Source: an uncultured Eubacteriales bacterium (GTDB taxonomy: Bacteria > Bacillota > Clostridia > Oscillospirales > Acutalibacteraceae). From it: DNA of 64,000 bases. A model generated the notes under the pieces. That model was not told where the DNA came from and searched no databases. It worked only from the letters and a program-made list of their open reading frames with translations. The translations under genes were made by a program, and so were the position numbers. The DNA is taken from positions 88,997 through 152,996 of the forward strand of contig CAKSDI010000002.1 in assembly GCA_934445035.1 (NCBI GenBank). Reading direction: 5' to 3'. Below, one piece after another: positions 1 through 13,203 of this stretch (position 1 is its first letter; every line of letters begins with the position of its first letter).

Positions 1-591
1 CCCGTCATCTTCAAAGCCTACAATATCATAGGCAAACGGTCCTACCGAAAACTTGTTTGTATTATCCGCATTGAACACCCAAATAATGTCACGCTCAATT
101 TTATACATATCGGAAAAAGAACCATCAGCGTTGCGTTGGGCTAATTTTTCAATAGGCTTTCTGTCCGGGAAAAGATAATCTTTTGGATGCTTTTCCTTAT
201 GTAATGCGCATAGAAGCCTTGCTATATATATGTTCCTATATTTACTTTCGTCGGTTATTATCTCTGAAGCTACATAGGCAACTAACGGATTTTTGCTTGC
301 ATCCAAAATATTTGGATAACCTGCAAACTCTAACGATGATTTATCCATAGCATCTGCCATAACAAACGCCAATTTATAAAGGAAACTGCGATTCTCTTTT
401 GATTTTGCAACCGTCTGCAAATAATCAAAAAAATATTCCGTCTTTTTCAGCAGCGTGTTGGCAGCTGTGTATGCCACCCTCCCTTCACCCGACATAAACC
501 ATTGTGCGGTCTTTTGCAGACTGCTTGAATCGACTGCATCTTTATCCTTTAAGATGCGAATCAATGCCATTGGTGACTGTAAGAAACCCAT
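1..591 (-). CDS. hypothetical protein, N-terminal 197 aa; the ORF continues beyond the left window edge
   Basis: Hand translation of the minus strand. ATG at 591-589 with GAGGAG 7 nt upstream. The frame is open to position 1 (MGFLQSPMALIRILKDKDAV...). It is absent from the ORF track only because no stop lies in the window. It starts 22 nt downstream of the preceding gene, making it the last visible gene of the operon. Confidence 0.6.
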   Translation of the reverse strand, partial: MGFLQSPMALIRILKDKDAVDSSSLQKTAQWFMSGEGRVAYTAANTLLKKTEYFFDYLQTVAKSKENRSFLYKLAFVMADAMDKSSLEFAGYPNILDASKNPLVAYVASEIITDESKYRNIYIARLLCALHKEKHPKDYLFPDRKPIEKLAQRNADGSFSDMYKIERDIIWVFNADNTNKFSVGPFAYDIVGFEDDG

Positions 592-613
592 TTGTTTTCT
601 CCTCACTTTTTCT

Positions 614-1315
614 TTATTTATAAGATCCGCAGATCCTATTTCGTGAATTTAAAAGATTTACGACTTTTTCTATCTGCACAAGCATTGCCTCCGTATTTTT
701 ACCGAAAACGCTTGTTTTAAGAGCCTTTAATTCCTTTGTGATTTCTGATTCTATTTCTTTGGTTTCCTCAATAGAAACAGGATCGCTGTACTTGAACTTA
801 GTGGCGAGATTCTGCAAAGGCTCTCTTGCTTTTTCATCTTTGCAAGCATCTAAAATGTCTGAAATGTCTATCTGAAACCTTGTGACGTTTTTTGTTGCGT
901 TAACGGAGTTTACATCGATATTTTCTATAAAGTCTCTTGAATTGTCTGCCACAATAAAGCCGATGCTTGCTGCTCCGGTGTATATAAGAGATAGCAAAAG
1001 ACCTATCCAATAAGGAACATTGAAAAATGCACCGACAGCATAGAGAATAACGGTTGTTATCAGTTGAGCAGCGGTATACAGATACCCGATTCGGAAAATC
1101 GGATAACCGTAAAACTTGCTCATTAAATCCATCGGTTTGCCAAAGGCGTATAAACTAATACCCGCTCCGACAGCCAAGGAAATAATGGAAAAAGCAAACA
1201 TTATCCAAGAGCTTGCCGGTTTTGGAAACGGAATAAGCACCGTAAGGAGAATAAATAAAACGGCAACAATCCCGTAAATCGCAATGGCGGACTTTTTCGG
1301 TTTATTCATTTTCAT
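614..1315 (-). CDS. integral membrane protein (about 4 TM helices plus a helical cytoplasmic tail), function unknown
   Basis: ORF track 614..1318. I prefer the ATG at 1315 (MKMNKPKK) with AAGGAG 7 nt upstream, located inside the end of the upstream gene. Hydrophobic segments include AIAIYGIVAVLFILLTVLIPF, WIMFAFSIISLAVGAGISLYAF and YLYTAAQLITTVILYAVGAFF. Confidence 0.7.
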   Translation of the reverse strand: MKMNKPKKSAIAIYGIVAVLFILLTVLIPFPKPASSWIMFAFSIISLAVGAGISLYAFGKPMDLMSKFYGYPIFRIGYLYTAAQLITTVILYAVGAFFNVPYWIGLLLSLIYTGAASIGFIVADNSRDFIENIDVNSVNATKNVTRFQIDISDILDACKDEKAREPLQNLATKFKYSDPVSIEETKEIESEITKELKALKTSVFGKNTEAMLVQIEKVVNLLNSRNRICGSYK

Positions 1316-1317
1316 CA

Positions 1318-3213
1318 CTATTCTCCTTTCCGGTGTCCGCAGTCTGGACAGAATTTAGAAGTAATATTTGTGCGTCCGCATTCAGGGCAATTCCAGATTT
1401 CAGCTTTTTCGGGGCGTTTTGCACCGCAATCGGGACAGAAGTTGCTGCTTATTCCTTTACATCCGCAAGAACAGTCCCATTTTGAATTTTCCGCAGTTTG
1501 CGGTTTCGGAGCACCGCATTCAGGACAAAACATAGAGGTTATACAAGTTTTGCCGCAGGAACAGTTCCACGCTGTTGTTTTATTTGAGGTAGGAATGGCA
1601 TTGTCCGAAGCCTGCTTTCCCATATCGGCAGCGTTATTCATAATAGGGGACATTATATCCTTTGTCATATTTACAACGCCGCTCATCGCACCGAGTCCCA
1701 CACCAAGACCGACCATATTGCCAACGGCACCGCCAAGACCACCGGCGGCAGAACCCTCTGTGCCGGTGCCTGTTCCCGGCAAGCCGTTTTGCATGGCTTC
1801 CAATCCAATCTGACGAGAGGTTTCCTGACCGTATGTATAGCCTTTGGCACGCATTTCTTCCGCTTCTGCCATTGCCTGTGCAGAATATGCTTCGGCGGTG
1901 GATTGCCCTTTAAGTCTGGTCGCTTCGGCAGAACCCTGAGCCTCAAATTTGACCGCCTCGGAATGCGCCTGTGCGGAGATTTTGGTTGCTTCGCCTTCTC
2001 CTTGTGTGCGCAAAATTTTCCGCTGAGCCTCGGTTTGTTCCTCAACCAAGACTCTTCCTTGACGAGCTTCGGCTTCGGCTCGCAACACGCCTTCTTCTCT
2101 GGCTTTCAGCTTTCTCTCCGCTTCTTGCTTTCTCCAGCGTTCAACATCCTCGCTGTTATGGATTTTGATTGTAGTTAAATTAAAATGATTTGTCGGGATG
2201 ATCAATCCGTACTCATCAAAAACGGCGTTTAAGTCTTTGCGCAGAATATCGGAAATCAGAATTTTTTTGCTTTCAATATCTAAAACATTGATTTGATTTT
2301 CAATGATAATATTGGCTAACAGGTCCGATAAACGGCTTGTGATCACATCACGGAATTTTTCGGAAACATACGCCGCCGTATAGGACTCGCCGGCACCCAT
2401 CGGTTCGTTGTGCTCTGTTCCCGAAGATGTACCGATAATCATATAAACCAACTTGCGAACGCTCTCGTTGTCATCGATTACCTGTAAATCAACCGAACCG
2501 CTGATACCGATATTAACATAAAAATCCATTTCGGGATTTCTGAGCCGGATTTCCGGCACACCCCACTTGACATTTAATCGGTTTGTTCGAACAAAATAGA
2601 TCTTAGAATCAAATGTAAGCTCTGCGTCGGTCGGGAATTTCAAAACTTCTTCTAAAAGCGGAAGCTTTTGTGTTTCGAGAATATGTCGGCCCGGACCGAA
2701 AACATCCAATCCTTTTCCGTTTCGGAAAAACAAAGCTTTTTGTCCTTCTGACACGATAAGCTGTGAGCCGATATTGAAATTTTCTACGGGATGGCGGTAA
2801 ACGAAAATATCATTCATTCCCATATCCCATTTAATTACACCCGTTTTACCACTGCTTTTTTCCTGCGCCAACCTTGCCTGAACATCAATTACGGTTTTAC
2901 ACTGGGGACAGGTATAGGTTTTTGCGCTCTTGTCGGCAATTAATGCGACTTTACATGCGGGGCAGGTGATTTTAACTGTTTCCTTGCCGGAGTTGATTCT
3001 TGTATGACAGACCGGGCAGCTGGCAGTTGCGCTTTTACTTCTGTCATAGATAACTTTGTTTCCGCAATGGGGGCATGTGTCCTCAGCCATTCGTTCGGTG
3101 TTAACATCAACTACATAGCCGCAGGAACACTTAATTTTCTTTTTGGCAAATAAGCCTGTTCCGGCTTGTATCGGTTTTTTACACGCCGGACATTCTATTA
3201 CGAAATTAGCCAT
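1318..3213 (-). CDS. SPFH/band-7 (stomatin-prohibitin-flotillin) domain protein with multiple Zn-ribbons, YdjI/COG4260-like
   Basis: The N-terminus has about four CxxC...CxxC ribbons (CPACKK..CSCG, CPHCGN..CPVCH, CPACKV..CPQCK). The central SPFH-like region reads GVIKWDMGMNDIFVYRHP...LIVSEGQKALFFRNGK...IYFVRTN. This is followed by an Ala/Glu/Gln-rich coiled coil and a Gly-rich linker. The C-terminus carries three tandem W(N/D)C..CG..FCP(E/D)CG ribbons. I chose the start at ATG 3213 (MANFVIE, AAAGGA RBS) rather than the track start at 3297, which overlaps the upstream gene. Confidence 0.8.
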   Translation of the reverse strand: MANFVIECPACKKPIQAGTGLFAKKKIKCSCGYVVDVNTERMAEDTCPHCGNKVIYDRSKSATASCPVCHTRINSGKETVKITCPACKVALIADKSAKTYTCPQCKTVIDVQARLAQEKSSGKTGVIKWDMGMNDIFVYRHPVENFNIGSQLIVSEGQKALFFRNGKGLDVFGPGRHILETQKLPLLEEVLKFPTDAELTFDSKIYFVRTNRLNVKWGVPEIRLRNPEMDFYVNIGISGSVDLQVIDDNESVRKLVYMIIGTSSGTEHNEPMGAGESYTAAYVSEKFRDVITSRLSDLLANIIIENQINVLDIESKKILISDILRKDLNAVFDEYGLIIPTNHFNLTTIKIHNSEDVERWRKQEAERKLKAREEGVLRAEAEARQGRVLVEEQTEAQRKILRTQGEGEATKISAQAHSEAVKFEAQGSAEATRLKGQSTAEAYSAQAMAEAEEMRAKGYTYGQETSRQIGLEAMQNGLPGTGTGTEGSAAGGLGGAVGNMVGLGVGLGAMSGVVNMTKDIMSPIMNNAADMGKQASDNAIPTSNKTTAWNCSCGKTCITSMFCPECGAPKPQTAENSKWDCSCGCKGISSNFCPDCGAKRPEKAEIWNCPECGRTNITSKFCPDCGHRKGE

Positions 3214-3226
3214 AGTATCATCCTTT

Positions 3227-5350
3227 CTATCTGTAATAATCCGAGCTGGCATATGAATAACAGTCATTTGCTTTTGAGTTGCTGTCTTCATAGTCATATT
3301 TGGCTAACAGGGCAAATAAAAAATATGCTTTTTCGTACTCTGCGTTTTTTTGATAAGTACAAGCTTTATTGTACATATCTTTCAGTAATGCTTTTGATTT
3401 CAGCACATCGTCCCATATATCATCAAGCTTTGAAACTGCATTGACAATATCCGTTTCAAAAGTCGGACTGTTTACATCTACGGAGTCATAGGCTTTCATT
3501 GCTGCATCAAAGCTCTTTTGCAGCTTTTCATTCTTTTCTTTTTGTGCTTTCTTATTGCTTTCCGTGCTTGGTTTTATTGTTTTTTCTTTGCCATTACCAA
3601 AATCCTTAAATGTATAGTCAGAATAGTTAATTTGCGTGATGGCAAAGGTAATTTTCAATGATGCAAAGCTATAGTCTGACAGCTTTTGAACAGAATCGGA
3701 ATCAAGCGTTAAATCCAATTCCTGTTTTTTCCCGTGCGGAAGATTGGAAAGCTCCAACTTAGTTGCGCTGAGTTTTTTCCCGCTCTCGTCATAAAAATAC
3801 ATAACGCCTGAAAAGTAAGAAATATCAACAAAGCCTTTGTTTTTGAATTCCATTGGTATGGTTTCGCTTACCCAATTGTCGGAAAGCGTATCTTTGCTGA
3901 ATCCAACATATACATTGGTGTTATATTTCATCAAATTAAATACGAAAAATGCAAATACAACAAAAATCGCAACGACACTTAAATACGCTATAACTTTCTT
4001 GGATTTCTGTCTGGTTTTCTGCTTTTGTGTATAGCTCATTAACTCAGCGGTGCGGATTTCATCTCCGCAGGTTTGATATAACGCCAAGGCTTTTTTGAAT
4101 TCGGGACAATCAATCAGGTTTTCTTTTTTGTTTTCAATTTCGCTTTCGTTTCTTGCTTGCAACCGTACAAGACAAAGCCCCCAATATGCGTCGGCATTTT
4201 GTGCGTCAAAGGATAGAATCAATTGCAAAAAAGTCCGAGCCTGATTCCACAGGGCAGATTGTAAAAGAACACGGGAATATAAAAGAATTTGGGTTTTTAA
4301 TGCTTCCGGCGCTCCTGAATGATAGCCGATCAGCTTCCAAACAAATTGACTGATTCTGTCTGTTGTGACATTCTCGGAATTTACTGCGTTCAATACATCA
4401 ATAACTTCTTTGTCTGCATTATCTGAGTATTTAAGCAAGTTTTCAAAATCAATAATGCATTGCTGCATAGTGGCATCCGATTTTATATCGCATTTTAACA
4501 ATAACGAATGGATTCGCATATTACCCGGATCAGTAACAAGGAACTTTCTGTAATACTTTTGTGCAATTATCGGTGAACAGTTGCTGGCGAATTTTTCAAT
4601 GTATGAAAGATATGTATCTACTTCATTCGATTCCAGTGTTGTGCTTATCAAATAATCAAACGATTTTTCGTAAGATTTATTGATTGCATAGAGAATGGCA
4701 CCATTTGTAATGCTTTTGAATTTACTGTTTGAATAAACAGCTTCATTTTTTGCATAGGGCAAAATGGCTTTTAAGGCTGTGAACAAAGCACTGTCGGATT
4801 GATAATCATTTGAAAAAATCAATTCTATAATATGCCGTGCAAATTCAGGTGTAGCATTTGAAAGAATGACATCGATTATTTTCCCATCAGCTACGGTAAA
4901 CGCCGATAATGCCCTTAATAGTTCTCCCTCATTAGAAAGGTGGCGGCTGCACATAATTGCAAACCACCGCACCTGCGCATTGTTATGATCAGATAATAAA
5001 ACCTGATTGATTTGGGCTTGTGCTGTTTCCCATTCCTTAACACCTAAAAAGCGAGAAATCAGTTGGAGATTCTGTTCAGTATCAATATTGGAACTTTCAC
5101 GGTGAATGTCTGAGTCAATATTATCCGAAAGCTTAATTTCTTTAACGGTAATTGTATCCGTTTTAATAGTCGCCGCCTTTGCTGCCATTTGTCCGCTTTG
5201 AATTTCCTTCTTTTCAATGGGGCAATAAGTAAACGGATTTCCGGCATCATCTCGACCGAGCATATATTTTGTGCCGCAGTTTTCACATATGTAAAACTTG
5301 CCATCTTCACGCAGTGTTCCGCCGCAACCAGAACATTCAAGTTTTTTCAC
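3227..5350 (-). CDS. Zn-ribbon / helical-repeat (TPR-like) single-pass membrane protein, function unknown
   Basis: GTG start at 5350 with GAGGAGG 7 nt upstream. N-terminal ribbon CSGCGG-x15-CENCG. About 400 aa of helical repeat follows (e.g. AYWGLCLVRLQARNESEI), then one TM helix (VIAYLSVVAIFVVFAFFVFNLM), then a beta-rich region and a helical C-terminal domain. Confidence 0.7.
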   Translation of the reverse strand: MKKLECSGCGGTLREDGKFYICENCGTKYMLGRDDAGNPFTYCPIEKKEIQSGQMAAKAATIKTDTITVKEIKLSDNIDSDIHRESSNIDTEQNLQLISRFLGVKEWETAQAQINQVLLSDHNNAQVRWFAIMCSRHLSNEGELLRALSAFTVADGKIIDVILSNATPEFARHIIELIFSNDYQSDSALFTALKAILPYAKNEAVYSNSKFKSITNGAILYAINKSYEKSFDYLISTTLESNEVDTYLSYIEKFASNCSPIIAQKYYRKFLVTDPGNMRIHSLLLKCDIKSDATMQQCIIDFENLLKYSDNADKEVIDVLNAVNSENVTTDRISQFVWKLIGYHSGAPEALKTQILLYSRVLLQSALWNQARTFLQLILSFDAQNADAYWGLCLVRLQARNESEIENKKENLIDCPEFKKALALYQTCGDEIRTAELMSYTQKQKTRQKSKKVIAYLSVVAIFVVFAFFVFNLMKYNTNVYVGFSKDTLSDNWVSETIPMEFKNKGFVDISYFSGVMYFYDESGKKLSATKLELSNLPHGKKQELDLTLDSDSVQKLSDYSFASLKITFAITQINYSDYTFKDFGNGKEKTIKPSTESNKKAQKEKNEKLQKSFDAAMKAYDSVDVNSPTFETDIVNAVSKLDDIWDDVLKSKALLKDMYNKACTYQKNAEYEKAYFLFALLAKYDYEDSNSKANDCYSYASSDYYR

Positions 5351-6000
5351 AACTTTACCTCCTCGGTCGTGATAGGACCGTTTTTAATAACATAAGGCAC
5401 TTTGTTATTACGTATTTCTTCGACGGTTAACGAATGATGCCGAACTAAATCACATTCTTTACACGAAAAAGAAAACCAATCATATGCAAACCCCGGCATA
5501 TGAAGTAAAACATCTTTGAATTTTTCATTATCTATGTATGTGTTCTTGATGCTCTTAAGCAACTCTGAAAAATTAGTTGGTGGCAACAAATCGGGAATAT
5601 TTGAATAATAACGTATACACCAAACAAATACAGGTATCGTCAAGAGAACACTAATAGTGTTATTTACAGTGGAGTAATTTTTATTTGATTTCTTTTTGCA
5701 CGCATGATTTATACACTGGATAGAAAGTTCTTCAATATTATTTGTTTTAAGCTTATGATCTTTAATGTCTTTGATATATGTGGTAGTTTCTTTTTCGGTG
5801 GATGCTAAGGTTAATTCAAAAGGCATATTGTCTATTATCAAATCAGGTTCTTTTTGGTTGGCGTTTCCCCATATTATTTTTTTCTCACAAAAAAGGTCAA
5901 AACAATTTTTAAGAAGATACAATTGAAATCTCTCATTTATTTCTTTTTTGAAGAAATCTTTTGGAAAGAAATAATCAAAACTAACTTTATTCATTTTCAT
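5347..6000 (-). CDS. hypothetical protein (217 aa), first gene of the operon
   Basis: ORF track 5347..6177. I prefer the ATG at 6000 (MKMNKVSFDYFF) with GGAG upstream. The longer form has no RBS and would run through the inverted repeat at 6044-6064. Its stop overlaps the GTG start of the next gene (GTGA). Confidence 0.6.
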   Translation of the reverse strand: MKMNKVSFDYFFPKDFFKKEINERFQLYLLKNCFDLFCEKKIIWGNANQKEPDLIIDNMPFELTLASTEKETTTYIKDIKDHKLKTNNIEELSIQCINHACKKKSNKNYSTVNNTISVLLTIPVFVWCIRYYSNIPDLLPPTNFSELLKSIKNTYIDNEKFKDVLLHMPGFAYDWFSFSCKECDLVRHHSLTVEEIRNNKVPYVIKNGPITTEEVKL

Positions 6001-6043
6001 AATAATGCTCCATAGATTTGTTTGAATAGACAACTGATTAAAC

Positions 6044-6064
6044 AACATAATCCATATTATGTTG
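6044..6064. repeat. left inverted repeat (IRL) of the candidate invertible segment
   Basis: AACATAATCCATATTATGTTG. The exact reverse complement occurs at 6305-6325. The site is internally lox/dif-like: arms AACATAAT/ATTATGTT flank an asymmetric CCAT core. Confidence 0.85.
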
Positions 6065-6074
6065 TATTTAGAGC

Positions 6075-6104
6075 AATAAAAAATCTGCCGCAAACAGGGC
6101 AGAT
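6075..6104 (-). terminator. intrinsic terminator (minus strand) inside the invertible segment
   Basis: Stem ATCTGCC(6083-6089)/GGCAGAT(6098-6104) with an 8-nt loop. On the minus strand it is followed by TTTTTTATT. It lies between the recombinase gene and the operon. Confidence 0.65.
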
Positions 6105-6228
6105 CAAAAAAGAGTATAGCAAAGCAAGCCTTCTCAGAATTGTCGAAAAAGATAAGGAGAAAAGGCTTTATTGTCATGTTCGGTTTTCGACAATTTTGAG
6201 TTTTCTGTACTTTCCTTGGTTAAAGTGC

Positions 6229-6257
6229 TTTACAAACCATCCGTATTATGATATAAT
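6229..6257 (+). promoter_or_regulatory. sigma-A-type promoter with extended -10, inside the invertible segment
   Basis: TTTACA (6229-6234), a 17-nt spacer ending in TGa, then TATAAT (6252-6257). It currently points toward IRR and the 3' end of the recombinase gene, away from the operon. Confidence 0.65.
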
Positions 6258-6304
6258 ACGATATGTAAAATTGCGTTTGCTATATCCAAAAGCGAAATTT
6301 AATG

Positions 6305-6325
6305 CAACATAATATGGATTATGTT
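6305..6325. repeat. right inverted repeat (IRR) of the candidate invertible segment
   Basis: CAACATAATATGGATTATGTT is a 21/21 reverse complement of 6044-6064. The core is ATGG here versus CCAT in IRL, so the two sites are in inverted orientation. Confidence 0.85.
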
Positions 6326-6329
6326 TCTG

Positions 6330-6351
6330 CCGCCGATTTCGGTGGTTTTTT
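6330..6351 (+). terminator. plus-strand hairpin plus T-run immediately outside IRR
   Basis: CCGCCG(6330-6335)/CGGTGG(6340-6345), 6 bp including one G-U pair, with a 4-nt loop and TTTTTT (6346-6351). It would stop OFF-orientation promoter transcripts before they run antisense into the recombinase gene. Confidence 0.45.
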
Positions 6352-7192
6352 ATATTATAAGCCGCATATTTTCCATACGCTGACGATGTTCCATGCCGGT
6401 GGAGATGATATAAATTCTTGTGGTGTTTATACTTGAATGACCGAGAATATCCGCAAGTTTTGCAATATCCTTTTCAATTCCGTAAAACACCCTTGCGAAC
6501 AGGTGGCGCAGGTTATGCGGAAACACCTTTTGTGGGTTTACATTTGCTTCTTCACACAAGGCTTTCATTTCCCGCCAGATGTTGGTTCGGCTTATCGGCT
6601 TGCCCGTCCTTGTTACAAAAATCATACCGCTTTTAATATTTTGCTCTGCTGCATAGCGGAGCAATTTTTGTTTTAATTCCTTTACGATAAATACCGACCG
6701 CGTTTTCGCCTTGCAGTTCACCACCGCCTCGCCCTGTTTTACCGCCTCAACCGTTATATATTGCAACTCGCTGACGCGGATTCCCGTTCCGCATATAGTC
6801 TGCAAAATAAGATTAAGCCGCTCGTTGTGCTTGCGCTCCGCCGTTCGACAAAGCCGTGTGTATTCCGCTTTTGTCAGTTCTTTTTCTTCGGGGCAGAATA
6901 CCTGCTGCTGCAATTTCAGCGATTTCACCTTTAAATCGTGCCAGCCTAAAAAAGCAAATAGATTGTTGATACTTGCAAGCATTGAATTAACGCTTCGCAC
7001 AGCGTAAGCTTCTTGCAAATGCTTCTTATATGCAATTACGTTTTCTTTTGTAACAGCATTGTTTTGCGTATACGCTGAAAATGCCTTTACATCACGGCTA
7101 TACTTTTCAACTGTTGCCGCACTCCTTTCCTCTAAGATTAGGTGTTCCTTAAATTCGGCAATTACTTTTGCCGTAATAAATCGTCCTTTCAT
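6350..7192 (-). CDS. site-specific tyrosine recombinase (XerC/D-like size, no arm-binding domain); candidate invertase for the adjacent switch
   Basis: SAM-like N-terminal domain (AATVEKYSRDVKAF). Catalytic motifs are GTGIRVSEL (Arg), HNLRHLFA (H-x-x-R-H) and HSSINTTRIYI (His...Tyr). Start taken at ATG 7192 (MKGRFITAK) with a GGAGG RBS. Confidence 0.9.
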   Translation of the reverse strand: MKGRFITAKVIAEFKEHLILEERSAATVEKYSRDVKAFSAYTQNNAVTKENVIAYKKHLQEAYAVRSVNSMLASINNLFAFLGWHDLKVKSLKLQQQVFCPEEKELTKAEYTRLCRTAERKHNERLNLILQTICGTGIRVSELQYITVEAVKQGEAVVNCKAKTRSVFIVKELKQKLLRYAAEQNIKSGMIFVTRTGKPISRTNIWREMKALCEEANVNPQKVFPHNLRHLFARVFYGIEKDIAKLADILGHSSINTTRIYIISTGMEHRQRMENMRLII

Positions 7193-7319
7193 TTTGGTTT
7201 GCCTCCGAGTATTTTTTACTATTTTACCCGAAAAGTATGAAAACAAAAATTGTCGTCCCAAAAGGGTTGTGGTATGTTACCTTGGAAAGAACGATTTTGC
7301 AAGTTATTTTTTATTTTAG

Positions 7320-7348
7320 TTGAAAACAATTTGCCACATTGATATAAT
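7320..7348 (+). promoter_or_regulatory. consensus-like sigma-A promoter upstream of the element's regulatory genes
   Basis: TTGAAA (7320-7325), 17 nt, TATAAT (7343-7348). A structured leader of about 200 nt follows. Confidence 0.6.
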
Positions 7349-7550
7349 TAAAATATTCTTTCCGATCACAACGGCAGCAGCCGTGTGATAAATAAAATTT
7401 ATGTGCCGATGAGGTCACAACTGTGTGACCTCAGATTTCACCGAAGCTCCTAAGGCAATCAGCTGTAGATAGGATAAGCCTTGAAGTCAACAGTTTAATG
7501 GTGCTGTTTCGGCAGCCCTGTGACCTTTCCCACGGCGGAAAGGAATTCAT

Positions 7551-7946
7551 TTGGGGAATACCATTGTTAAGTACGGCGAAGGTACGGTTTCAGTTTCAAA
7601 AGAGGTTGCGGATTTTTTAGAGGCCGACAGAAAAAGGCAGGCGGCTGAAGGTCGGAGCGACCGCCGGCACACGAGTAAGAGTGATTCCGAAACAGTGCTG
7701 CAAACTGCTCAAATTACGGCTGTCAGCGATCCTACCTTTGAAACGGCTTTTAAAAACCTTTGTTTTGAAAAACTGCAAAAAATCATTGCCAACCTTGAGT
7801 TTGAAGATTTCTTTTTGATTCGGTGCTACTTTTTTGAGGAATGCACTATGCAGCAAATTGCAGACAAACTCGGAGTGAGTAAAATGGCAATATCGAAACA
7901 ACTGAAAAAACTCCTGAGCCGGATACGGGAACTTATGGAAACATAG
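7551..7946 (+). CDS. sigma-70 region-4-like helix-turn-helix protein (mobile-element regulator)
   Basis: TTG start with a GGAAAGGA RBS 6 nt upstream. C-terminal HTH reads ECTMQQIADKLGVSKMAISKQLKKLLSRIRELM. Confidence 0.7.
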   Translation: MGNTIVKYGEGTVSVSKEVADFLEADRKRQAAEGRSDRRHTSKSDSETVLQTAQITAVSDPTFETAFKNLCFEKLQKIIANLEFEDFFLIRCYFFEECTMQQIADKLGVSKMAISKQLKKLLSRIRELMET

Positions 7947-8113
7947 GTTTCCGTATTTTTTTGCAATTTTTTAAAATTTTGGTTTACAAACTGCTTTTAA
8001 CTGTCCTAATAAGTAGAGGGATAAATTTCGGAGCATAGATGGCACCTGTATATTTTGTCTGATGCCGTCCGTAATTTATCTCTCAATATTTTATATAAAG
8101 GAGCTGATGCCGA

Positions 8114-8410
8114 ATGATTGTGCCGCAAAATAAAAACGGCAATTTTTTTATGCTGTCAAACAGTATATTTAAGCAAGGTCTTAAACCGAGGGAATTTATT
8201 GTCTACTGCTGCCTTGTAAAACACAGCGATAAAAACGGTGTCTGCTTTCCGTCACGGCGGCTGATTGCCAAGGAGTGCTGTATTGATAAAAAGACGTTGG
8301 ACTCAGCAATCCAAAGTCTTGAAAAAACGGGACTTGTAAAAAAGAAAAAACGCCGCAGACAGGACGGTTCGAACACAAGCAATGCTTACACGGTCAAGCT
8401 GTTTCGGTAG
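8114..8410 (+). CDS. winged helix-turn-helix DNA-binding protein (mobile-element associated)
   Basis: AAAGGAG RBS. FPSRRLIAKECCIDKKTLDSAIQSLEKTGLV is wHTH-like. The tail is basic (KKKKRRRQ). Confidence 0.65.
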   Translation: MIVPQNKNGNFFMLSNSIFKQGLKPREFIVYCCLVKHSDKNGVCFPSRRLIAKECCIDKKTLDSAIQSLEKTGLVKKKKRRRQDGSNTSNAYTVKLFR

Positions 8411-8698
8411 TGTAATTTTTTCGTACAGGGTGGTGTAAGAAACGGTATCGCAGAACTATACCCATAGAACTAAACCCACTGAGTATATATTACAGCAGAA
8501 TAAAGAAATAAGACGGCAAACTTTTCCTCTGCCGAAACAGCCGCAGAAAACGCCCTGTTCGCCGAGCAAGCGAAAAACCGAGTAAACACCCAACCGAGCC
8601 TCACAAAGGCGAAATACGGCGCTGTAAACGGCGTGTACGCCCCTTTTTTCTTTTCTGCTGTGGTAACAGACAGAATACCGCAGGGTGACGCCTTTGTA

Positions 8699-8821
8699 CT
8701 CTCCCTTTGGGGAGAGTGCGAGCATCGCAGACGGCTGGTCGCCGGCAAAGCCGCCCCCTGCCGCTGCTGCTCGGCGGGCAGAAGCCCTGCACCCACTTAC
8801 TTTCTTTGAAAAGAAAGTAAG
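8699..8821 (+). promoter_or_regulatory. candidate oriT region (two hairpins upstream of mobC)
   Basis: Hairpin CTCTCCC(8699-8705)/GGGAGAG(8710-8716) is followed by TGCGAGCAT, so AGTGCG resembles MOBQ-type nic-proximal sequence. A second hairpin CTTACTTTCT(8796-8805)/AGAAAGTAAG(8812-8821) lies 35 nt before the mobC ATG. Confidence 0.4.
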
Positions 8822-8855
8822 CAAAGAAACTTTAATCTTCAATGAAAGGAATTTT

Positions 8856-9167
8856 ATGAAGGATAAGAAACTAAGCATCCGCATCAGCGAACAAGACCTC
8901 GCTGCCATACACCGAAAAGCGAACACGGCAAAGCTTTCCATTACGGACTATATTACACGCTCCTGCCTCAACAAACAAATCATTGTGGTGGACGGGCTTG
9001 AAAATATTATCCGAGAGCAAAAAGCGATCGGTAAAAACCTAAACCGACTCACACTGCTTTGCAATATGGGCAGAGTATCGGTTGCCGATCTGTCTGAAGT
9101 AAAGAATGAGTATGCAAGGCTGAACGAACTTCTTTGTTCTCTGCTTGACAGAAAGCGGTGGCAGTAA
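8856..9167 (+). CDS. mobC: MobC-family relaxosome accessory protein (ribbon-helix-helix)
   Basis: MKDKKLSIRISEQDLAAIHRKANTAKLSITDYITRSCL...IGKNLNRLTLLCN. Internal ATG at 8856 with a GAAAGGA RBS. The stop overlaps the relaxase ATG (TAATG). Confidence 0.8.
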   Translation: MKDKKLSIRISEQDLAAIHRKANTAKLSITDYITRSCLNKQIIVVDGLENIIREQKAIGKNLNRLTLLCNMGRVSVADLSEVKNEYARLNELLCSLLDRKRWQ

Positions 9168-10528
9168 TGGCAACGGTAAATTTAATACAGAGCAAGCGTT
9201 CACAATCGAAAGTCGGACTTAAATTTATTCTTTCCTACTGTAAGCGTGACAGCAAAACCGTGTGTGGAAATAAAAAACTGATCGGCGGTGTGAACTGCGT
9301 TGCCGAAAGCGCATACCACGAAATGCTGTCTACGAAAATGCGGTACGGAAAAACAGACGGCAGAATGTTTTATCATCTGGTGCAGTCCTTCTCGCCGGAG
9401 GAAAACATTACTCCCGAAACCGCATACGAAATTGCTTTGAAATTTGCGGAACGGGAATTTTCCGAATATGAAGTTTTGGTGGCTACCCATACCGACAGGG
9501 CGCATATCCATTCGCATTTTGTTATCAACAGCGTAAGCTGTGAGAACGGATACAAGCTCCGTCTGCCTAAGGATTTTATAGAGCAGCTGCGAAACGCATC
9601 GGACAGGCTTTGTATGGAATACGGTCTGTCGGTTATCCCTACACAACAGAAAAAGAAAATCGTGCGGCAGATGTCCTCAAAGGAATACCGTTCGGCAGTG
9701 CGGGGCGAGAGTTATAAAATGCAGCTTGCGGCAGTCATAGATGACGCAATGGCACGGGCAAAAACAAAAGAAGATTTTATTCGGTCGATGGAAGCCGAGG
9801 GCTACGGTGTGGTATGGACGGACGAGAGAAAATATATCACCTATATCACGCAGGACGGAAAGCGGTGCCGCGACCGCAGCCTGCACGAAGAAAAATATCT
9901 TAAGGAGAATATGGAATATGAATTCGGAATACGGAAGATTATCCTCGGAGGAACTGAAAACGAGAGCGCGGCAGAGTATGCAGAGAGCTGCCGAAGCGAA
10001 GCCCTGCGTAACGGTGACCGAGCCGAACTGGAAAGGAATGCTCGATACGCAGAAAGCGCAGATAGAACTGCTCTCACGGCTGATGAGCGCAACCGAAACG
10101 CTGACAACCAAAGAGGAACTGACGGAGTATATGAACGAGCAGCTGAATATTCTGACCGAGAACAACGCACAGTGCCAAGCGGCGGTGACGGAATTTCAGA
10201 ACAGAATGAGGAAATCGGCAACGGAATTTACCGACTCGATGAAAACGGCGGTGTCGGATACCGAGAAACGGGTTGGGAGGATCAGCGATTATTATTCGAA
10301 CAATCTCTCAATGCTGACGGATACGGCGGAGAAGTATTTGAGCCAGATATTTTGGATTACGGTTATTCCCTCAGCGATAACGGCACTGTATTATCTGACG
10401 CTGCTTATCTTGCGGCTGATATAACAGTCATCATTGACGATGACGCTCCTGTTGAGGATTGCACCACAAGGCACTTCCCCTCAGAGCATAAAAAGAAATA
10501 TTCCGGTCCTGTTATGGGCGGAATGTAA
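9167..10528 (+). CDS. MobA/VirD2-family relaxase (mobilization nuclease)
   Basis: Histidine triad HTDRAHIHSHFVINSV and N-terminal YCKRDSK..GGVNC. A long acidic/Gly-rich C-terminal tail follows. ATG 9167 is translationally coupled to mobC. Confidence 0.85.
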   Translation: MATVNLIQSKRSQSKVGLKFILSYCKRDSKTVCGNKKLIGGVNCVAESAYHEMLSTKMRYGKTDGRMFYHLVQSFSPEENITPETAYEIALKFAEREFSEYEVLVATHTDRAHIHSHFVINSVSCENGYKLRLPKDFIEQLRNASDRLCMEYGLSVIPTQQKKKIVRQMSSKEYRSAVRGESYKMQLAAVIDDAMARAKTKEDFIRSMEAEGYGVVWTDERKYITYITQDGKRCRDRSLHEEKYLKENMEYEFGIRKIILGGTENESAAEYAESCRSEALRNGDRAELERNARYAESADRTALTADERNRNADNQRGTDGVYERAAEYSDREQRTVPSGGDGISEQNEEIGNGIYRLDENGGVGYRETGWEDQRLLFEQSLNADGYGGEVFEPDILDYGYSLSDNGTVLSDAAYLAADITVIIDDDAPVEDCTTRHFPSEHKKKYSGPVMGGM

Positions 10529-10562
10529 AAATACCGAACAGCCTTACGGCGGAAAGGAATCT

Positions 10563-10712
10563 ATGGAGAAAAACGATTACAACATTGAACGGGTTGAGTT
10601 TTACTATAACGGCGACGATGAAAAGTTTGACCGCTTTTTAAGCTCGGCGATAAAAGAATATATCAGTACGGATAAAACGGCGGCCGATTGCGAAAACAGT
10701 AAATCGGCGTAA
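10563..10712 (+). CDS. small hypothetical protein (49 aa)
   Basis: ATG 10563 with a GGAAAGGAA RBS (MEKNDYNIERVEFYYNGDDEKF...). It lies between the relaxase and recombinase genes. Confidence 0.45.
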   Translation: MEKNDYNIERVEFYYNGDDEKFDRFLSSAIKEYISTDKTAADCENSKSA

Positions 10713-10800
10713 TTTATCTGGACTTACGGCAGGTGTTGTGGTATGTTGTTGCGTGGACAGGATATCACGCGCCTGCCGAGAAAAAAGAAAGGTGATTGCT

Positions 10801-12447
10801 ATGAGAGTATGGCTGTATTCAAGGCTTTCCCGTGATGAGGACAGCGAGTTAAATTCACTTACCAATCAGCAAAACATATTGCGGGAATATGCGGCAAACA
10901 ATAACTGCGCCGTTATCGGTGAGTCAGCCGATGACAACATCAGCGGAATGCATTTTAACCGTGAGGGGATAAATAAAATATACGCCGCCGTTGAGGATAA
11001 AAGCATTGACGCGGTAATCGTTAAAGACCTGTCCCGACTCGGACGGCACAGAACGCAGACCGCAATGTTTATAGACTATCTTCGTGAAAATGATGTGCGT
11101 GTGCTTTCGGTAACCGAAAACATAGACACAAGCAACGAGGACGATGATCTGATGGTTGGCTTTAAAGGAATATTCAACGATATGTACGCCAGAGATATAT
11201 CCAAGAAAATCCGTGCGGGATATAAGCAAAAACAAAAAAGCGGTATCGTGATGATACCGCCGCTTGGATACTTCAAGGATAAAAACACGGGCAAGGTTAC
11301 GGTTGTTGAGGAACACGCCGAAATAGTCCGTAAGATATTCAATCTGTATGTATCGGGATACGGGCTTAAAGCTATATCTAAAATTTTGAATGAGGAAGGT
11401 ATTAAATCGCCGGGATATTATCAGAAAAAACTGTTAGGTAAAAATCTCGGATATAATAAACCGGAAATTGCTCACAGATTTTTATGGGAAAATACAGGCG
11501 TAAAAAGAATATTGCAGAATGAGTTTTATATCGGGAATCTTATCTGCCACAAGTCCTATACAAGTAAAATAAATCATATAAGAAAGGAACTGCCGCCCGA
11601 AGAGCATTTCAAACATGAAAACGCCGTGCCTGCAATCATACCGAAAGAGATATGGGAGCAGGCACAGTTTTTACTTGAGCAAAAGCCGAAAAGAAATGTA
11701 AGGGCTTCAAGCGGAAATACACATCACCGATACACGGGGCTTATAAAATGCGGCGATTGCGGTTCATCATTCAGTTGTAAAACAAGATATTGGCGTAATA
11801 ATCCGCCGAGAATGGAATATGTTTGCAACGGCTACCACCGTTACGGAAAGGAAAATTGTTCGCCGCATAAGATTGGTGAGGAAGTTCTTGACAGGCTGAT
11901 ACTTAAAGAGCTTGAGGAGCTTAAAATAATGGCCCATGAAAACTTTAAAAGGGTTGACAAAGAACTGAAAAAGTGGCTTGCTGACCGACCGTCCGCCGAA
12001 AAACAGATAACAGCGCTTAAGAATAAGCTCGCGCAGCGGAAAAACGACCAACAGCAAATACTGCTTGAAAGAATACGGGACAGAGAACACGCCGAAGTAT
12101 ATACCCAAATGCTTGTTTCCTGCGAAACGGATATTAAAACAATCGAAAGCAGAATTCGGGAAATGAAGGATATTGAAACTACCGTAAAGGAACGCAAAAA
12201 GCAAATGAATAAAAGCGTAGAACTGCTTGATGGTATTATAGCCGACGGTGCGATAAACGATACGCATCTCAGGATGTTGGTGGATGAGATCGTTATATAC
12301 GAAAAAAACGGAAAGCTTGATATTCAAATAACGCTTAACGGAGAATTCCGCACGCATATCGACTACTACGATGAAAGCGGAGATATAACCGACAGGCACG
12401 CCGAAATATGGTATTTCCCGAATTGGGAAAGTATGGCGGAGGGTTAA
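10801..12447 (+). CDS. large serine recombinase (resolvase/invertase N-terminal domain, recombinase domain, Zn-ribbon, coiled coil)
   Basis: MRVWLYSRLSRDED contains the catalytic Ser motif; VKDLSRLGRH is also present. The Zn-ribbon reads CGDCGSSFSC...CNGYHRYGKENCSPH. ATG 10801 has an AAAGGTGA RBS. Confidence 0.9.
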   Translation: MRVWLYSRLSRDEDSELNSLTNQQNILREYAANNNCAVIGESADDNISGMHFNREGINKIYAAVEDKSIDAVIVKDLSRLGRHRTQTAMFIDYLRENDVRVLSVTENIDTSNEDDDLMVGFKGIFNDMYARDISKKIRAGYKQKQKSGIVMIPPLGYFKDKNTGKVTVVEEHAEIVRKIFNLYVSGYGLKAISKILNEEGIKSPGYYQKKLLGKNLGYNKPEIAHRFLWENTGVKRILQNEFYIGNLICHKSYTSKINHIRKELPPEEHFKHENAVPAIIPKEIWEQAQFLLEQKPKRNVRASSGNTHHRYTGLIKCGDCGSSFSCKTRYWRNNPPRMEYVCNGYHRYGKENCSPHKIGEEVLDRLILKELEELKIMAHENFKRVDKELKKWLADRPSAEKQITALKNKLAQRKNDQQQILLERIRDREHAEVYTQMLVSCETDIKTIESRIREMKDIETTVKERKKQMNKSVELLDGIIADGAINDTHLRMLVDEIVIYEKNGKLDIQITLNGEFRTHIDYYDESGDITDRHAEIWYFPNWESMAEG

Positions 12448-12459
12448 CCCTCCGCCATA
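12432..12459. repeat. 28-bp perfect palindrome spanning the serine recombinase stop codon
   Basis: TATGGCGGAGGGTT|AACCCTCCGCCATA. No T-run follows it. Confidence 0.9.
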
Positions 12460-12576
12460 TCATATATCAATATTCTTCTGTGCTGTAAATATAACAGACT
12501 CGGCAGGCGTGCAGCTCTATGTTATGCGCCAGTTTTTTGCTTGTGACAAGTAATTTCAGTTAAAATTTTAGGCAAA

Positions 12577-12615
12577 GAAAAACGCTCAAAGCCGCATAAA
12601 CAAAGGCTTTGAGCG
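12577..12615 (-). terminator. intrinsic terminator of tRNA-Leu
   Basis: Stem CGCTCAAAGCC(12583-12593)/GGCTTTGAGCG(12605-12615). On the minus strand it is followed by a T-run (plus-strand A-run 12577-12582). It lies directly 3' of the tRNA. Confidence 0.7.
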
Positions 12616-12616
12616 G

Positions 12617-12703
12617 TGGTGCGGGTAAGAGGACTTGAACCTCCACGACCTTGCGATCATTAGAACCTGAATCTAACGCGTCTGCCTATTCCGCCATACC
12701 CGC
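12617..12703 (-). tRNA. tRNA-Leu (anticodon CAG), CCA encoded
   Basis: The minus strand reads GCGGGTATGGCGGAATAGGCAGACGCGTTAGATTCAGGTTCTAATGATCGCAAGGTCGTGGAGGTTCAAGTCCTCTTACCCGCACCA. Acceptor stem GCGGGTA/TACCCGC, anticodon loop TTCAGGT, a long variable arm and T-loop GGTTCAAGTCC. Confidence 0.9.
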
Positions 12704-12975
12704 ATATTAAGTTTTTATCCTCTGATTTTTACACGGCGAGGATATCCGAGGCGGAGCATTTCGCTTAATCCGCAATATATACAAACAGCAATTAAGCTGT
12801 GTGTAAGCTCAAATTAAAAAGAAAGTAAGAACGAAAAAATTTCAAAAATTGAAAAGTTGAGAAGTGCGATATCGTAGAAGTTGACTTTGTCAACTTTTCG
12901 ATTTCGTCGCACTGCATTGTGCGATGAAATCGCGCCGAAAATTTCAGTTTTTAATACTTACACCAAGGTGGCGTT

Positions 12976-13014
12976 ACCTGAATCTAGCGCGTCTGCCTAT
13001 TCCGCCATATCCGC
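12976..13014 (-). pseudogene. truncated duplicate of the tRNA-Leu 5' half (acceptor 5' strand through the anticodon loop)
   Basis: 37/39 identity to 12665-12703, at an offset of 311 bp. Homology breaks in the anticodon loop, and no 3' half follows. Confidence 0.85.
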
Positions 13015-13034
13015 AAATAAGTGCCGCAAAAAAT

Positions 13035-13063
13035 ATAATACCAATTAGAAAGCGATTTGTCAA
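13035..13063 (-). promoter_or_regulatory. consensus sigma-A promoter directly upstream of the tRNA-Leu 5'-half remnant
   Basis: On the minus strand: TTGACA (13063-13058), 17 nt, TATTAT (13040-13035). It ends 20 nt before remnant position +1. Confidence 0.7.
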
Positions 13064-13109: not shown

Positions 13110-13113
13110 AATA

Positions 13114-13172
13114 GACAATACAATCAGACAAATTTTCCGCTATGAGAAGCGTTGTATCCTGATTGTATTGTC
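13114..13172. mobile_element. 59-bp palindromic mini-MITE flanked by a TA duplication
   Basis: Terminal inverted repeats GACAATACAATCA.../...TGATTGTATTGTC. TA is present at 13112-13113 and 13173-13174. Its reverse complement matches 15254-15312 at 57/59. Confidence 0.8.
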
Positions 13173-13203
13173 TAATCTTAATATTTAATCAAAGGTGATA
13201 ATT

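Follow-up and report, generated by a model that had tools for sequence, protein, structure and literature searches.

In the genome of an uncultured Eubacteriales bacterium (assembly GCA_934445035.1, contig CAKSDI010000002.1) a native tRNA-Leu(CAG) gene is very probably split by an integrative mobilizable element of about 15.76 kb, which most likely entered via its large serine recombinase and carries a complete tRNA-Leu(CAG) of its own. The analysis was centered on a stretch of 64,000 nucleotides (positions 88,997 to 152,996 of this contig, forward strand). This whole stretch is referred to as the window; coordinates without a prefix are those of the window and coordinates with the prefix G000:C2 refer to the window's own genome. 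An original prediction for the region 12617-13063 had proposed that a small or decayed element, with an insert of 272 bp, integrated here and brought a replacement 5' half of the tRNA gene. The integration of a mobile element at this position was corroborated by a distal 3' half of the native gene, by an unoccupied site in a relative and by inverted-repeat ends. Its description had to be revised: the insert measures about 15.76 kb and contains an intact large serine recombinase gene, a relaxase gene and cargo, the intact tRNA is wholly element-borne with a 3' half unlike the native one, and the enzyme is most likely the large serine recombinase.

ARAGORN and Rfam agreed on a complete tRNA-Leu(CAG) at 12617-12703 on the minus strand, the sole tRNA call in the window and the only tRNA-Leu(CAG) among the 42 tRNAs of the genome. 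A repeat search returned a direct repeat of 43 nt (12665-12707 versus 12976-13018, 93% identity), which consists of the 39-nt 5' half of the tRNA (37 of 39 positions identical) and 4 nt upstream, with a spacing of 311 nt. The full 39-nt copy, called the remnant here, spans positions 13014-12976. Using a promoter scan, a sigma-70-type promoter with the arrangement TTGACA-17-TATTAT and a TG-extended -10 element was identified at 13035-13063 on the minus strand (11/12), and no promoter-like site was detected on the minus strand between 12704 and 13034. Thus, the tRNA, the 5'-half copy and a promoter that lies before the copy and not before the intact gene were all reproduced as predicted. The promoter is the native promoter of the host tRNA-Leu(CAG) and now faces the element; an identical promoter precedes an intact tRNA gene in the congener G208, and the same promoter is present in the congener G066. 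The remnant with the same flanks recurs in G066 and in a further congener, G020, and this recurrence rules out chance.

The missing part of the native gene was found by scanning the whole genome for 3' ends of tRNA-Leu. An orphan tRNA-Leu 3' end is located at G000:C2:86161-86189, on the same strand and 15.4 kb downstream of the intact gene. It belongs to the right half of the native tRNA-Leu(CAG), which extends from the anticodon loop to CCA, is followed by the native terminator (G000:C2:86161-86214, same strand as the remnant) and lies 2.8 kb before the window start. The distal junction reads ..TTTCACTGAGGTGGCGTTACC-A-TC-AGGT-TCTAG-TGGTAGCAATACCATG-CAGGTTCAACTCCTG-TTATCCGC-ACCA, then the terminator follows. 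The distal acceptor strand TATCCGC pairs with GCGGATA of the remnant and not with GCGGGTA of the intact gene, and the distal anticodon-stem strand TCTAG pairs with CTAGA of the remnant and not with the intact tRNA. Remnant and distal fragment complement each other as two halves 15.8 kb apart, and they share no tRNA direct repeat beyond 6 bp. Neither junction rebuilds a functional tRNA: the left attachment site (attL) lacks the 3' half and the right attachment site (attR) lacks the 5' half. The earlier conclusion that the two copies have different histories holds, as A5 of the remnant comes from another allele, whose matching strand TATCCGC is located 15.8 kb away.

The locus is unoccupied in G208, where htpG, the same palindromic repeat, the same promoter, an intact tRNA-Leu(CAG) and a terminator of the same type are present; an uninterrupted gene at this locus in a relative had been proposed as a check. 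Another genome, G019, was examined as an empty site as well; its downstream flank was too divergent and G208 served instead. When the left flank in the window was joined with the distal right flank, ARAGORN called Leu(cag), the restored bacterial attachment site (attB) read ..CTAGATTCAGGTTCTAG.. and the joined gene was identical to the G208 gene at 87 of 87 positions. From the distal 3' half and the unoccupied G208 locus it follows that an insertion of about 15.76 kb divided the native gene. The left half of the disrupted gene (the B arm) at 12982-13014 on the minus strand, which includes A5 and the anticodon-stem strand CTAGA, is identical to nt 1-33 of the G208 gene. Regarding the predicted break of homology in the anticodon loop, the position of the crossover in this loop was retained, and the native part was found to end a few bases earlier. 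Since the last four letters of the remnant, AGGT, also begin the element end, only about nt 1-35 are native, and because the core TCAGGT is common to both recombination sites, a break placed at the end of the anticodon loop makes the native part appear a few bases too long.

These results bear directly on the small element with a tyrosine integrase and a replacement 5' half, in which the 272-bp spacer would be the insert and the working tRNA a hybrid of an element 5' half and a host 3' half. The break of the 39-nt direct repeat in the anticodon loop agrees with such an insertion, and short units of 34-165 nt do exist between 5' halves in relatives. However, the 3' half of the intact tRNA differs from the native one, which was found 15.8 kb away and joined to the opposite element end. 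Moreover, the remnant and the distal half together make up the empty site of G208, and the sequence after the remnant is an inverted-repeat arm with its partner 15.8 kb away. We consider this model highly improbable. Nothing is duplicated at this locus. The insertion only severed the native gene and left its 3' half next to the opposite end of the element, so that the less common polarity ascribed to a duplicated 5' half is illusory. A tandem duplication with subsequent decay is ruled out by the distal 3' half and the empty site, and miniature circles integrating by homology of the 5' halves became needless once attR had been found.

The element inserted into the native gene extends from G000:C2:86214 to 101976, i.e. 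over positions 1-12980 of the window and 2.78 kb before it. Its ends are inverted repeats of about 28 bp, GGTAACGCCACC.. and ..GGTGGCGTTACC, which flank the 6-bp core TCAGGT; they are identical at 25 of 30 positions, and the 12-mer GGTGGCGTTACC is exact at both ends. By sequence comparison the common core was located at 12976-12981 on the minus strand, and it occurs in the anticodon loop (attB) as well as in the attachment site of the element (attP). The P' half-site of the left end (AGGTAACGCCACCTTGGTGTAAGTATTAA) at 12951-12979 on the minus strand is the inverted repeat of G000:C2:86215-86243, and G020 and G066 show the same arrangement. The right junction attR (G000:C2:86213-86245) was read together with the native 3' half, and this half is preceded by a reverse-complemented copy of the stretch that lies behind the remnant (..GAT-TC-AGGTAACGCCACCTTGGTG..). 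In the host anticodon loop attB reads ..CTAGAT-TC-AGGTTCTAG.., and its identity with the element is confined to TCAGGT. The reconstructed attP, ..CACTGAGGTGGCGTTACC-ATCA-GGTAACGCCACCTTGGTG.. or, written differently, ..CACTGAGGTGGCGTTACCA-TC-AGGTAACGCCACCTTGGTG.., is near-palindromic about A-TC-A, and the predicted junction of the circular element is ..GGTGGCGTTACCATCAGGTAACGCCACC... The crossover dinucleotide is probably TC (12981-12980), the dyad center of attP. Long dyad-symmetric half-sites with a tiny shared center are the site anatomy of serine integrases, and judging by the two repeats the anatomy of the element ends is that of an attP of a large serine recombinase. G020 and G066 contain the same attR at a distance of 15-18 kb from their tRNA. 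A counterpart with the same logic was found in tRNA-Leu(UAG), with attL ..GATTT-AGGTGATGTCACCTCAGTG and attR TTTCACTAAGGTGACATCGCC-TT-TAGGTTCTCG.., followed by the 3' half; the center of this right junction is TT.

A large serine recombinase of 569 amino acids is encoded at 10738-12447 on the plus strand, with the Pfam domains Resolvase (PF00239), Recombinase (PF07508) and Zn_ribbon_recom (PF13408). The gene is convergent with the tRNA and located about 530 bp from attL. Homologues with 25-99% identity occupy the same convergent position beside tRNA-Leu in 10 other loci (one viral contig). A second candidate is a tyrosine recombinase, detected using Pfam inside the element (6350-7261, minus strand), and the same insertion could have been catalyzed by this enzyme or by a helper in trans. 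Its gene does lie within the element, and the 6-bp core TCAGGT is within the overlap range of simple tyrosine recombinases. In contrast, the dyad of attP is located on A-TC-A, and an overlap of 6-8 bp centered there differs between attP and attB, which argues against a tyrosine recombinase. Moreover, two half-sites of about 28 bp are typical of an attP of serine integrases, and serine recombinase genes recur beside tRNA-Leu in divergent elements, whereas a tyrosine recombinase was found in one other locus only. The element of G066 has the same att sites and a serine recombinase with 98% identity, but no homologue of the tyrosine recombinase or of the relaxase, so that the serine recombinase is the only recombinase common to the elements of the window and of G066. 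Catalysis by a tyrosine recombinase or a helper is thus unlikely, and the enzyme encoded at 6350-7261 is probably not the integrase for the tRNA site. On the basis of the att sites and the gene comparison we assign the integration with good confidence to the large serine recombinase.

The proposed integration would be a site-specific recombination between the host anticodon loop (attB) and the near-palindromic attP of the element. The host gene was cut in such a way that the 5' part stays behind the host promoter (attL, the remnant), and the native 3' part with its terminator is located at the far end of the element (attR).

The element-borne tRNA-Leu(CAG) is located within the element, about 270 bp from its left end, and is oriented like the disrupted gene. 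It represents a different allele with the anticodon stem TTAGA/TCTAA and its own variable arm and T arm, and its 3' half (TCTAA..TACCCGC) mismatches the native 3' half (TCTAG..TATCCGC). An intrinsic terminator after the tRNA was identified from sequence and folding at 12575-12612 on the minus strand (-18.8 kcal/mol, then a T-run). The single genomic copy is consistent with a dependence of the host on the element tRNA. The tRNA varies among near-identical elements: the anticodon stem is TTAGA in the window and TATGA in L362 of G066 and in L010 of G020, and the tRNAs of the latter two also differ in the variable and T arms, with flanks on both sides that are 94-98% identical. This pattern seems to reflect an exchange of the tRNA body as a module between elements.

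Directly upstream of the element tRNA, at 12714-12773 on the minus strand, a conserved structured leader RNA of 60 nt is located, which we call Y (covariance model R1, 82.6 bits). A 5-bp helix GCGGA/UCCGC encloses a short or a long hairpin; the second part consists of an invariant CUCGG, followed by a helix of 6-7 bp and a loop with an invariant CCGUGUAAAA. In relatives the conserved block ..CTCGG..CCTCGCCGTGTAAAA..GAGG.. sits directly before the start of the next tRNA. The model was built from 56 copies, and 80 copies were re-aligned with it. In these 80 copies both sides change in 13 of 14 pairs, and pairing is possible in 90% of the cells compared with 42-55% when the 3' partners are slid by 1-3 columns; the observed values were reached in 0 of 500 shuffles, although an alignment fitted to the model somewhat favors the pairing of the model. 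A search of Y against Rfam reported only the tRNA, both at the gathering threshold and at E-values up to 10, and literature searches returned no description of the motif.

One copy of Y is present in the window's genome. Y was found in 25 of 101 sampled genomes of the genus and in 11 of 151 of the order, and this patchy distribution fits a carriage on mobile DNA. In addition, a collection of species was scanned with the 15-mers CCTCGCCGTGTAAAA and GATTCAGGTAACGCC. The matches listed were mostly due to chance, but at least 47 true Y loci were among them. Almost all of the Y loci among the matches listed belong to assemblies assigned to Oscillospiraceae, Acutalibacteraceae, Ruminococcaceae or 'Clostridia', and almost all are located 10-60 nt upstream of a tRNA-Leu gene or fragment. 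In G019 a Y-like leader is located behind a native promoter; Y may therefore not be exclusive to elements. It is a guess that Y matures or insulates the tRNA within long chimeric precursors.

Between Y and the element end a non-coding spacer (12774-12950, minus strand) contains a conserved hairpin at about 12896-12935 and no conserved open reading frame (ORF), as revealed by comparison with relatives. The spacer also contains a weak terminator-like hairpin at 12785-12800 (-10.5 kcal/mol); it is 115 nt shorter in G066 and has a 13-nt insertion in G020. An ORF of 41 codons in the spacer was rejected: it is frame-shifted in G020, and in L036 a stop follows the sole ATG. A group I intron or ribozyme in the spacer was also dismissed, since the tRNA begins again at nt 1 after the spacer, the units are not large enough and Rfam gave no match. 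Concerning an internal promoter ahead of the intact tRNA, a TTGACA at 12893-12888 is not accompanied by a usable -10 element, and a TATATT immediately before Y, considered as a -10 element, is too near Y for a full transcription of the motif. Since no promoter-like site and only a weak hairpin are located between the junction and the tRNA, the most economical reading, in line with the original prediction, is that transcripts starting at the captured host promoter read through into the element tRNA and carry a leader of about 325 nt, as we infer from the order of these features. The read-through transcript would be cut by RNase P to release the element tRNA, which would then compensate as the sole tRNA-Leu(CAG) of the cell.

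In other genomes protein genes sit between the left junction and the element tRNA, directly behind the captured promoter and a GAAGG resembling a ribosome binding site. They encode a GIY-YIG + DUF4357 protein of 280 amino acids (L121, 5223-6065) and a Cys-rich protein of 90 amino acids (L066, 5574-5846). A gene for a 23S_rRNA_IVP four-helix bundle (PF05635; L013 of G019 at 1953-2303, and L185 of G020) was observed between the tRNA promoter, which in G019 is accompanied by the Y-like leader, and tRNA-Leu(CAG). The same tRNA allele together with Y was observed in G021 (L182, 3031-4167) with a promoter of its own and without a half tRNA; the tRNA is separated by 1.1 kb with two small ORFs from the end of a serine-recombinase element, and this element copy is located at another site.

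Truncated 5' parts of tRNA genes are not restricted to the window. In relatives, whose loci were read after a search with a region of 1.1 kb, one to three truncated 5' parts precede tRNA-Leu genes, and about half of the Y loci of the genus carry one to three tRNA 5' halves. Most of the 5' parts in relatives break after nt 39, and the next sequence is rACGCCAyCTyGGTG in the CAG type or GATGTCACCTyAGTG in the UAG type. One could suppose that the 5' half and its tail form a functional tRNA-like regulatory RNA, i.e. a decoy or an attenuator, or a decaying tandem copy, which is kept by selection on RNA structure. In favor of this, such units are found in many genomes, the CAG and UAG types agree in the conserved sequence behind the loop, and the tail resembles the variable arm of some tRNA-Leu(UAG). 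A pairing of the tail with nt 8-12 of the 5' half can also be drawn and seems to be backed by compensatory changes, but an intact tRNA allows this pairing as well via G-U pairs, which leaves the test without power. Furthermore, the conserved stretch is accounted for at the DNA level as a recombinase half-site with an inverted copy at the other end of the element, G066 is mutated in both the loop and the half-site, and comparison with the empty site identifies the 5' half as simply one half of a normal gene. A function of this kind appears very improbable to us. A terminator/antiterminator switch formed by the 5' half and the tail was dropped once the inverted copy at the other element end had been found.

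In G020 three tandem 5' halves are combined with one right junction, and the element body is collinear with that of the window at 94-97% identity. We infer from these sequences that such arrays most likely arise when a second element integrates into the tRNA gene that a resident element carries. If the outer left junction then recombined with the inner right one, the excised element would take the inner scar with it. Nested attR sites were not found in G020, and literature searches yielded no description of arrays of tRNA 5' halves.

Other breaks were observed as well. A second type of truncated tRNA-Leu breaks after nt 22 in the D-loop (GGCAG) and occurs in L044, L183 (G023), L020 (G018), L081, L105 and L146. 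A conserved, GC-rich and apparently structured segment of about 165 nt separates this break from an intact tRNA-Leu. The segment shows compensatory changes, e.g. GCCCG..CAGGGC versus GACCG..CAGTC, and had no match in Rfam; it could be a further structured leader, or a different element family may end here. A further break class in relatives is characterized by CTAACGCG after the anticodon loop. In L407 (G018:C160, minus strand) an orphan 3' half of tRNA-Leu(CAG) that begins at the anticodon loop (ATTCAGGTTCTAG..) abuts an element end of a different kind; at least one further element family thus appears to use this loop. The other break classes suggest that further element families use the same gene.

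Some points weigh against our interpretation of the locus as an insertion by the serine recombinase with subsequent read-through into the element tRNA. The copy of the element in the window does encode a tyrosine recombinase, and an identical core of 6 bp also fits some tyrosine recombinases. The anticodon stem-loop is asymmetric about the proposed TC. The three 5' halves of G020 are accompanied by one attR, and the array model needs additional steps. The hairpin at 12785-12800 between the host promoter and the tRNA makes read-through uncertain, and an unrecognized internal promoter is possible.

Apart from the recombinases, a mobilization module was identified using Pfam at 7551-10528 on the plus strand. 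It comprises a sigma-r4 helix-turn-helix (HTH) protein, an HTH_36 protein, NikA/MobC (8685-9167) and a MobA/VirD2-type relaxase (PF03432, 9158-10528). Domains of type IV secretion, i.e. of a conjugation pore, were not detected by Pfam among the element ORFs of at least 90 amino acids. According to this gene content, a relaxase and an accessory protein without a conjugation pore, the element is classed as integrative mobilizable, and the copy in the window contains no phage genes. Cargo genes were assigned to 1-6177 on the minus strand and continue 2.78 kb past the window start to attR. They include an SPFH/Band-7 protein with a zinc ribbon (659 amino acids, 1318-3297) and a TPR protein with a weak TPR match (707 amino acids, 3227-5350), both on the minus strand and identified with Pfam. 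The five ORFs flanking this pair (1318-5350) gave no match in Pfam or PADLOC, and PADLOC had no match to the cargo genes of the element.

Two repeats were noticed in the flanks of the element. Between htpG and the tRNA promoter a palindromic repeat of 63 nt with perfect arms of 16 nt is located at 13112-13175, and it is likewise present at the empty site of G208. At least 10 further copies exist in the genome, mostly paired with an inverted partial copy about 250 bp away. The paired copies resemble elements of about 270 bp similar to miniature inverted-repeat transposable elements; the copy in the window is solo. Downstream of attR and outside the window, at about G000:C2 85080-85220, a short repeat of about 135 nt was found, which has many copies across the genomes of the genus and explains most of the matches to positions 312-447 of a flank query.

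A wider proposal, to which we give somewhat less than even weight, is that the element belongs to an undescribed guild of serine-recombinase elements, both mobilizable elements and prophages, in gut Clostridia of the Oscillospirales type. The members of this guild would use the anticodon loop of tRNA-Leu (CAG or UAG) as attB with an attP center that copies the loop, replace the tRNA-Leu of the host by their own and take over the host promoter. Arrays caused by super-integration would record the invasions, and Y would be a new RNA class needed to mature or insulate the incoming tRNA in a read-through transcript that starts with a half tRNA. Literature searches turned up neither a serine recombinase whose attB lies in a tRNA anticodon loop nor an integration of serine-recombinase elements into tRNA genes. 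The results suggest that there is a family of serine integrases whose natural target, the tRNA-Leu anticodon loop, is both short and universally conserved, and such integrases may be of interest for genome engineering. They also explain a recurrent annotation artefact, i.e. orphan tRNA-Leu 5' halves, sometimes arrayed, upstream of tRNA-Leu. As a by-product, a structured RNA motif of 60 nt with strong covariation and without an Rfam family was obtained, which is tied to tRNA-Leu genes.

Examples of integrated serine-recombinase elements are SPbeta in spsM, skin in sigK and A118 in comK, as well as streptococcal integrative and conjugative elements in rumA, mutT and hsdM. Elements of this class that split protein-coding genes are well known (PMC4701971). 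The element described here shares with them the location of the recombinase gene near one end, the very short identity of the att sites and a split target gene that can be restored by precise excision. In contrast, the known targets of these elements are protein-coding genes whose loss is tolerated or developmentally reversed, whereas here the target is a single-copy tRNA gene and a substitute is supplied.

Islands and prophages that target tRNA genes reportedly use tyrosine integrases (Williams 2002, NAR 30:866; PMC9897764, PMC4383910). Classical tRNA islands have in common with our element the tRNA gene as integration site, the anticodon loop as a known place of crossover and tRNA fragments at the ends. 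Classical islands reportedly carry the 3' part of the tRNA, restore the gene at one junction and leave a 3' direct repeat, whereas the gene is not restored here.

The nearest known system is the tRNA-dependent lysogeny of mycobacteriophages, in which integration by a tyrosine integrase at a short core within a tRNA gene leaves the gene unrestored and a phage tRNA makes up for the loss (Guerrero-Bustamante & Hatfull, mBio 2024, PMC10865867). Both systems share an attB that overlaps a host tRNA, the failure to rebuild the functional tRNA and a complete tRNA carried inside the element (PMC10865867). The mycobacteriophages use a tyrosine integrase and a core of about 10 bp (PMC10865867), whereas here a large serine recombinase, a 6-bp core and a crossover of probably 2 bp are most likely involved. 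In addition, these are temperate phages, and the present element is a mobilizable element and not a phage, in a genome of gut-type Clostridia. Unlike in tRNA-dependent lysogeny, the replacement tRNA is located directly behind the captured host promoter with a conserved structured leader, and serial half-gene arrays occur in relatives. Because the three functional features are shared and the enzyme class differs, we regard the element in the window not as a member of tRNA-dependent lysogeny but as a variant of it. Taken together, the disruption of an essential, single-copy tRNA gene with compensation by an element-borne tRNA, so far described for mycobacteriophages with tyrosine integrases, may extend to serine-recombinase elements of gut anaerobes.

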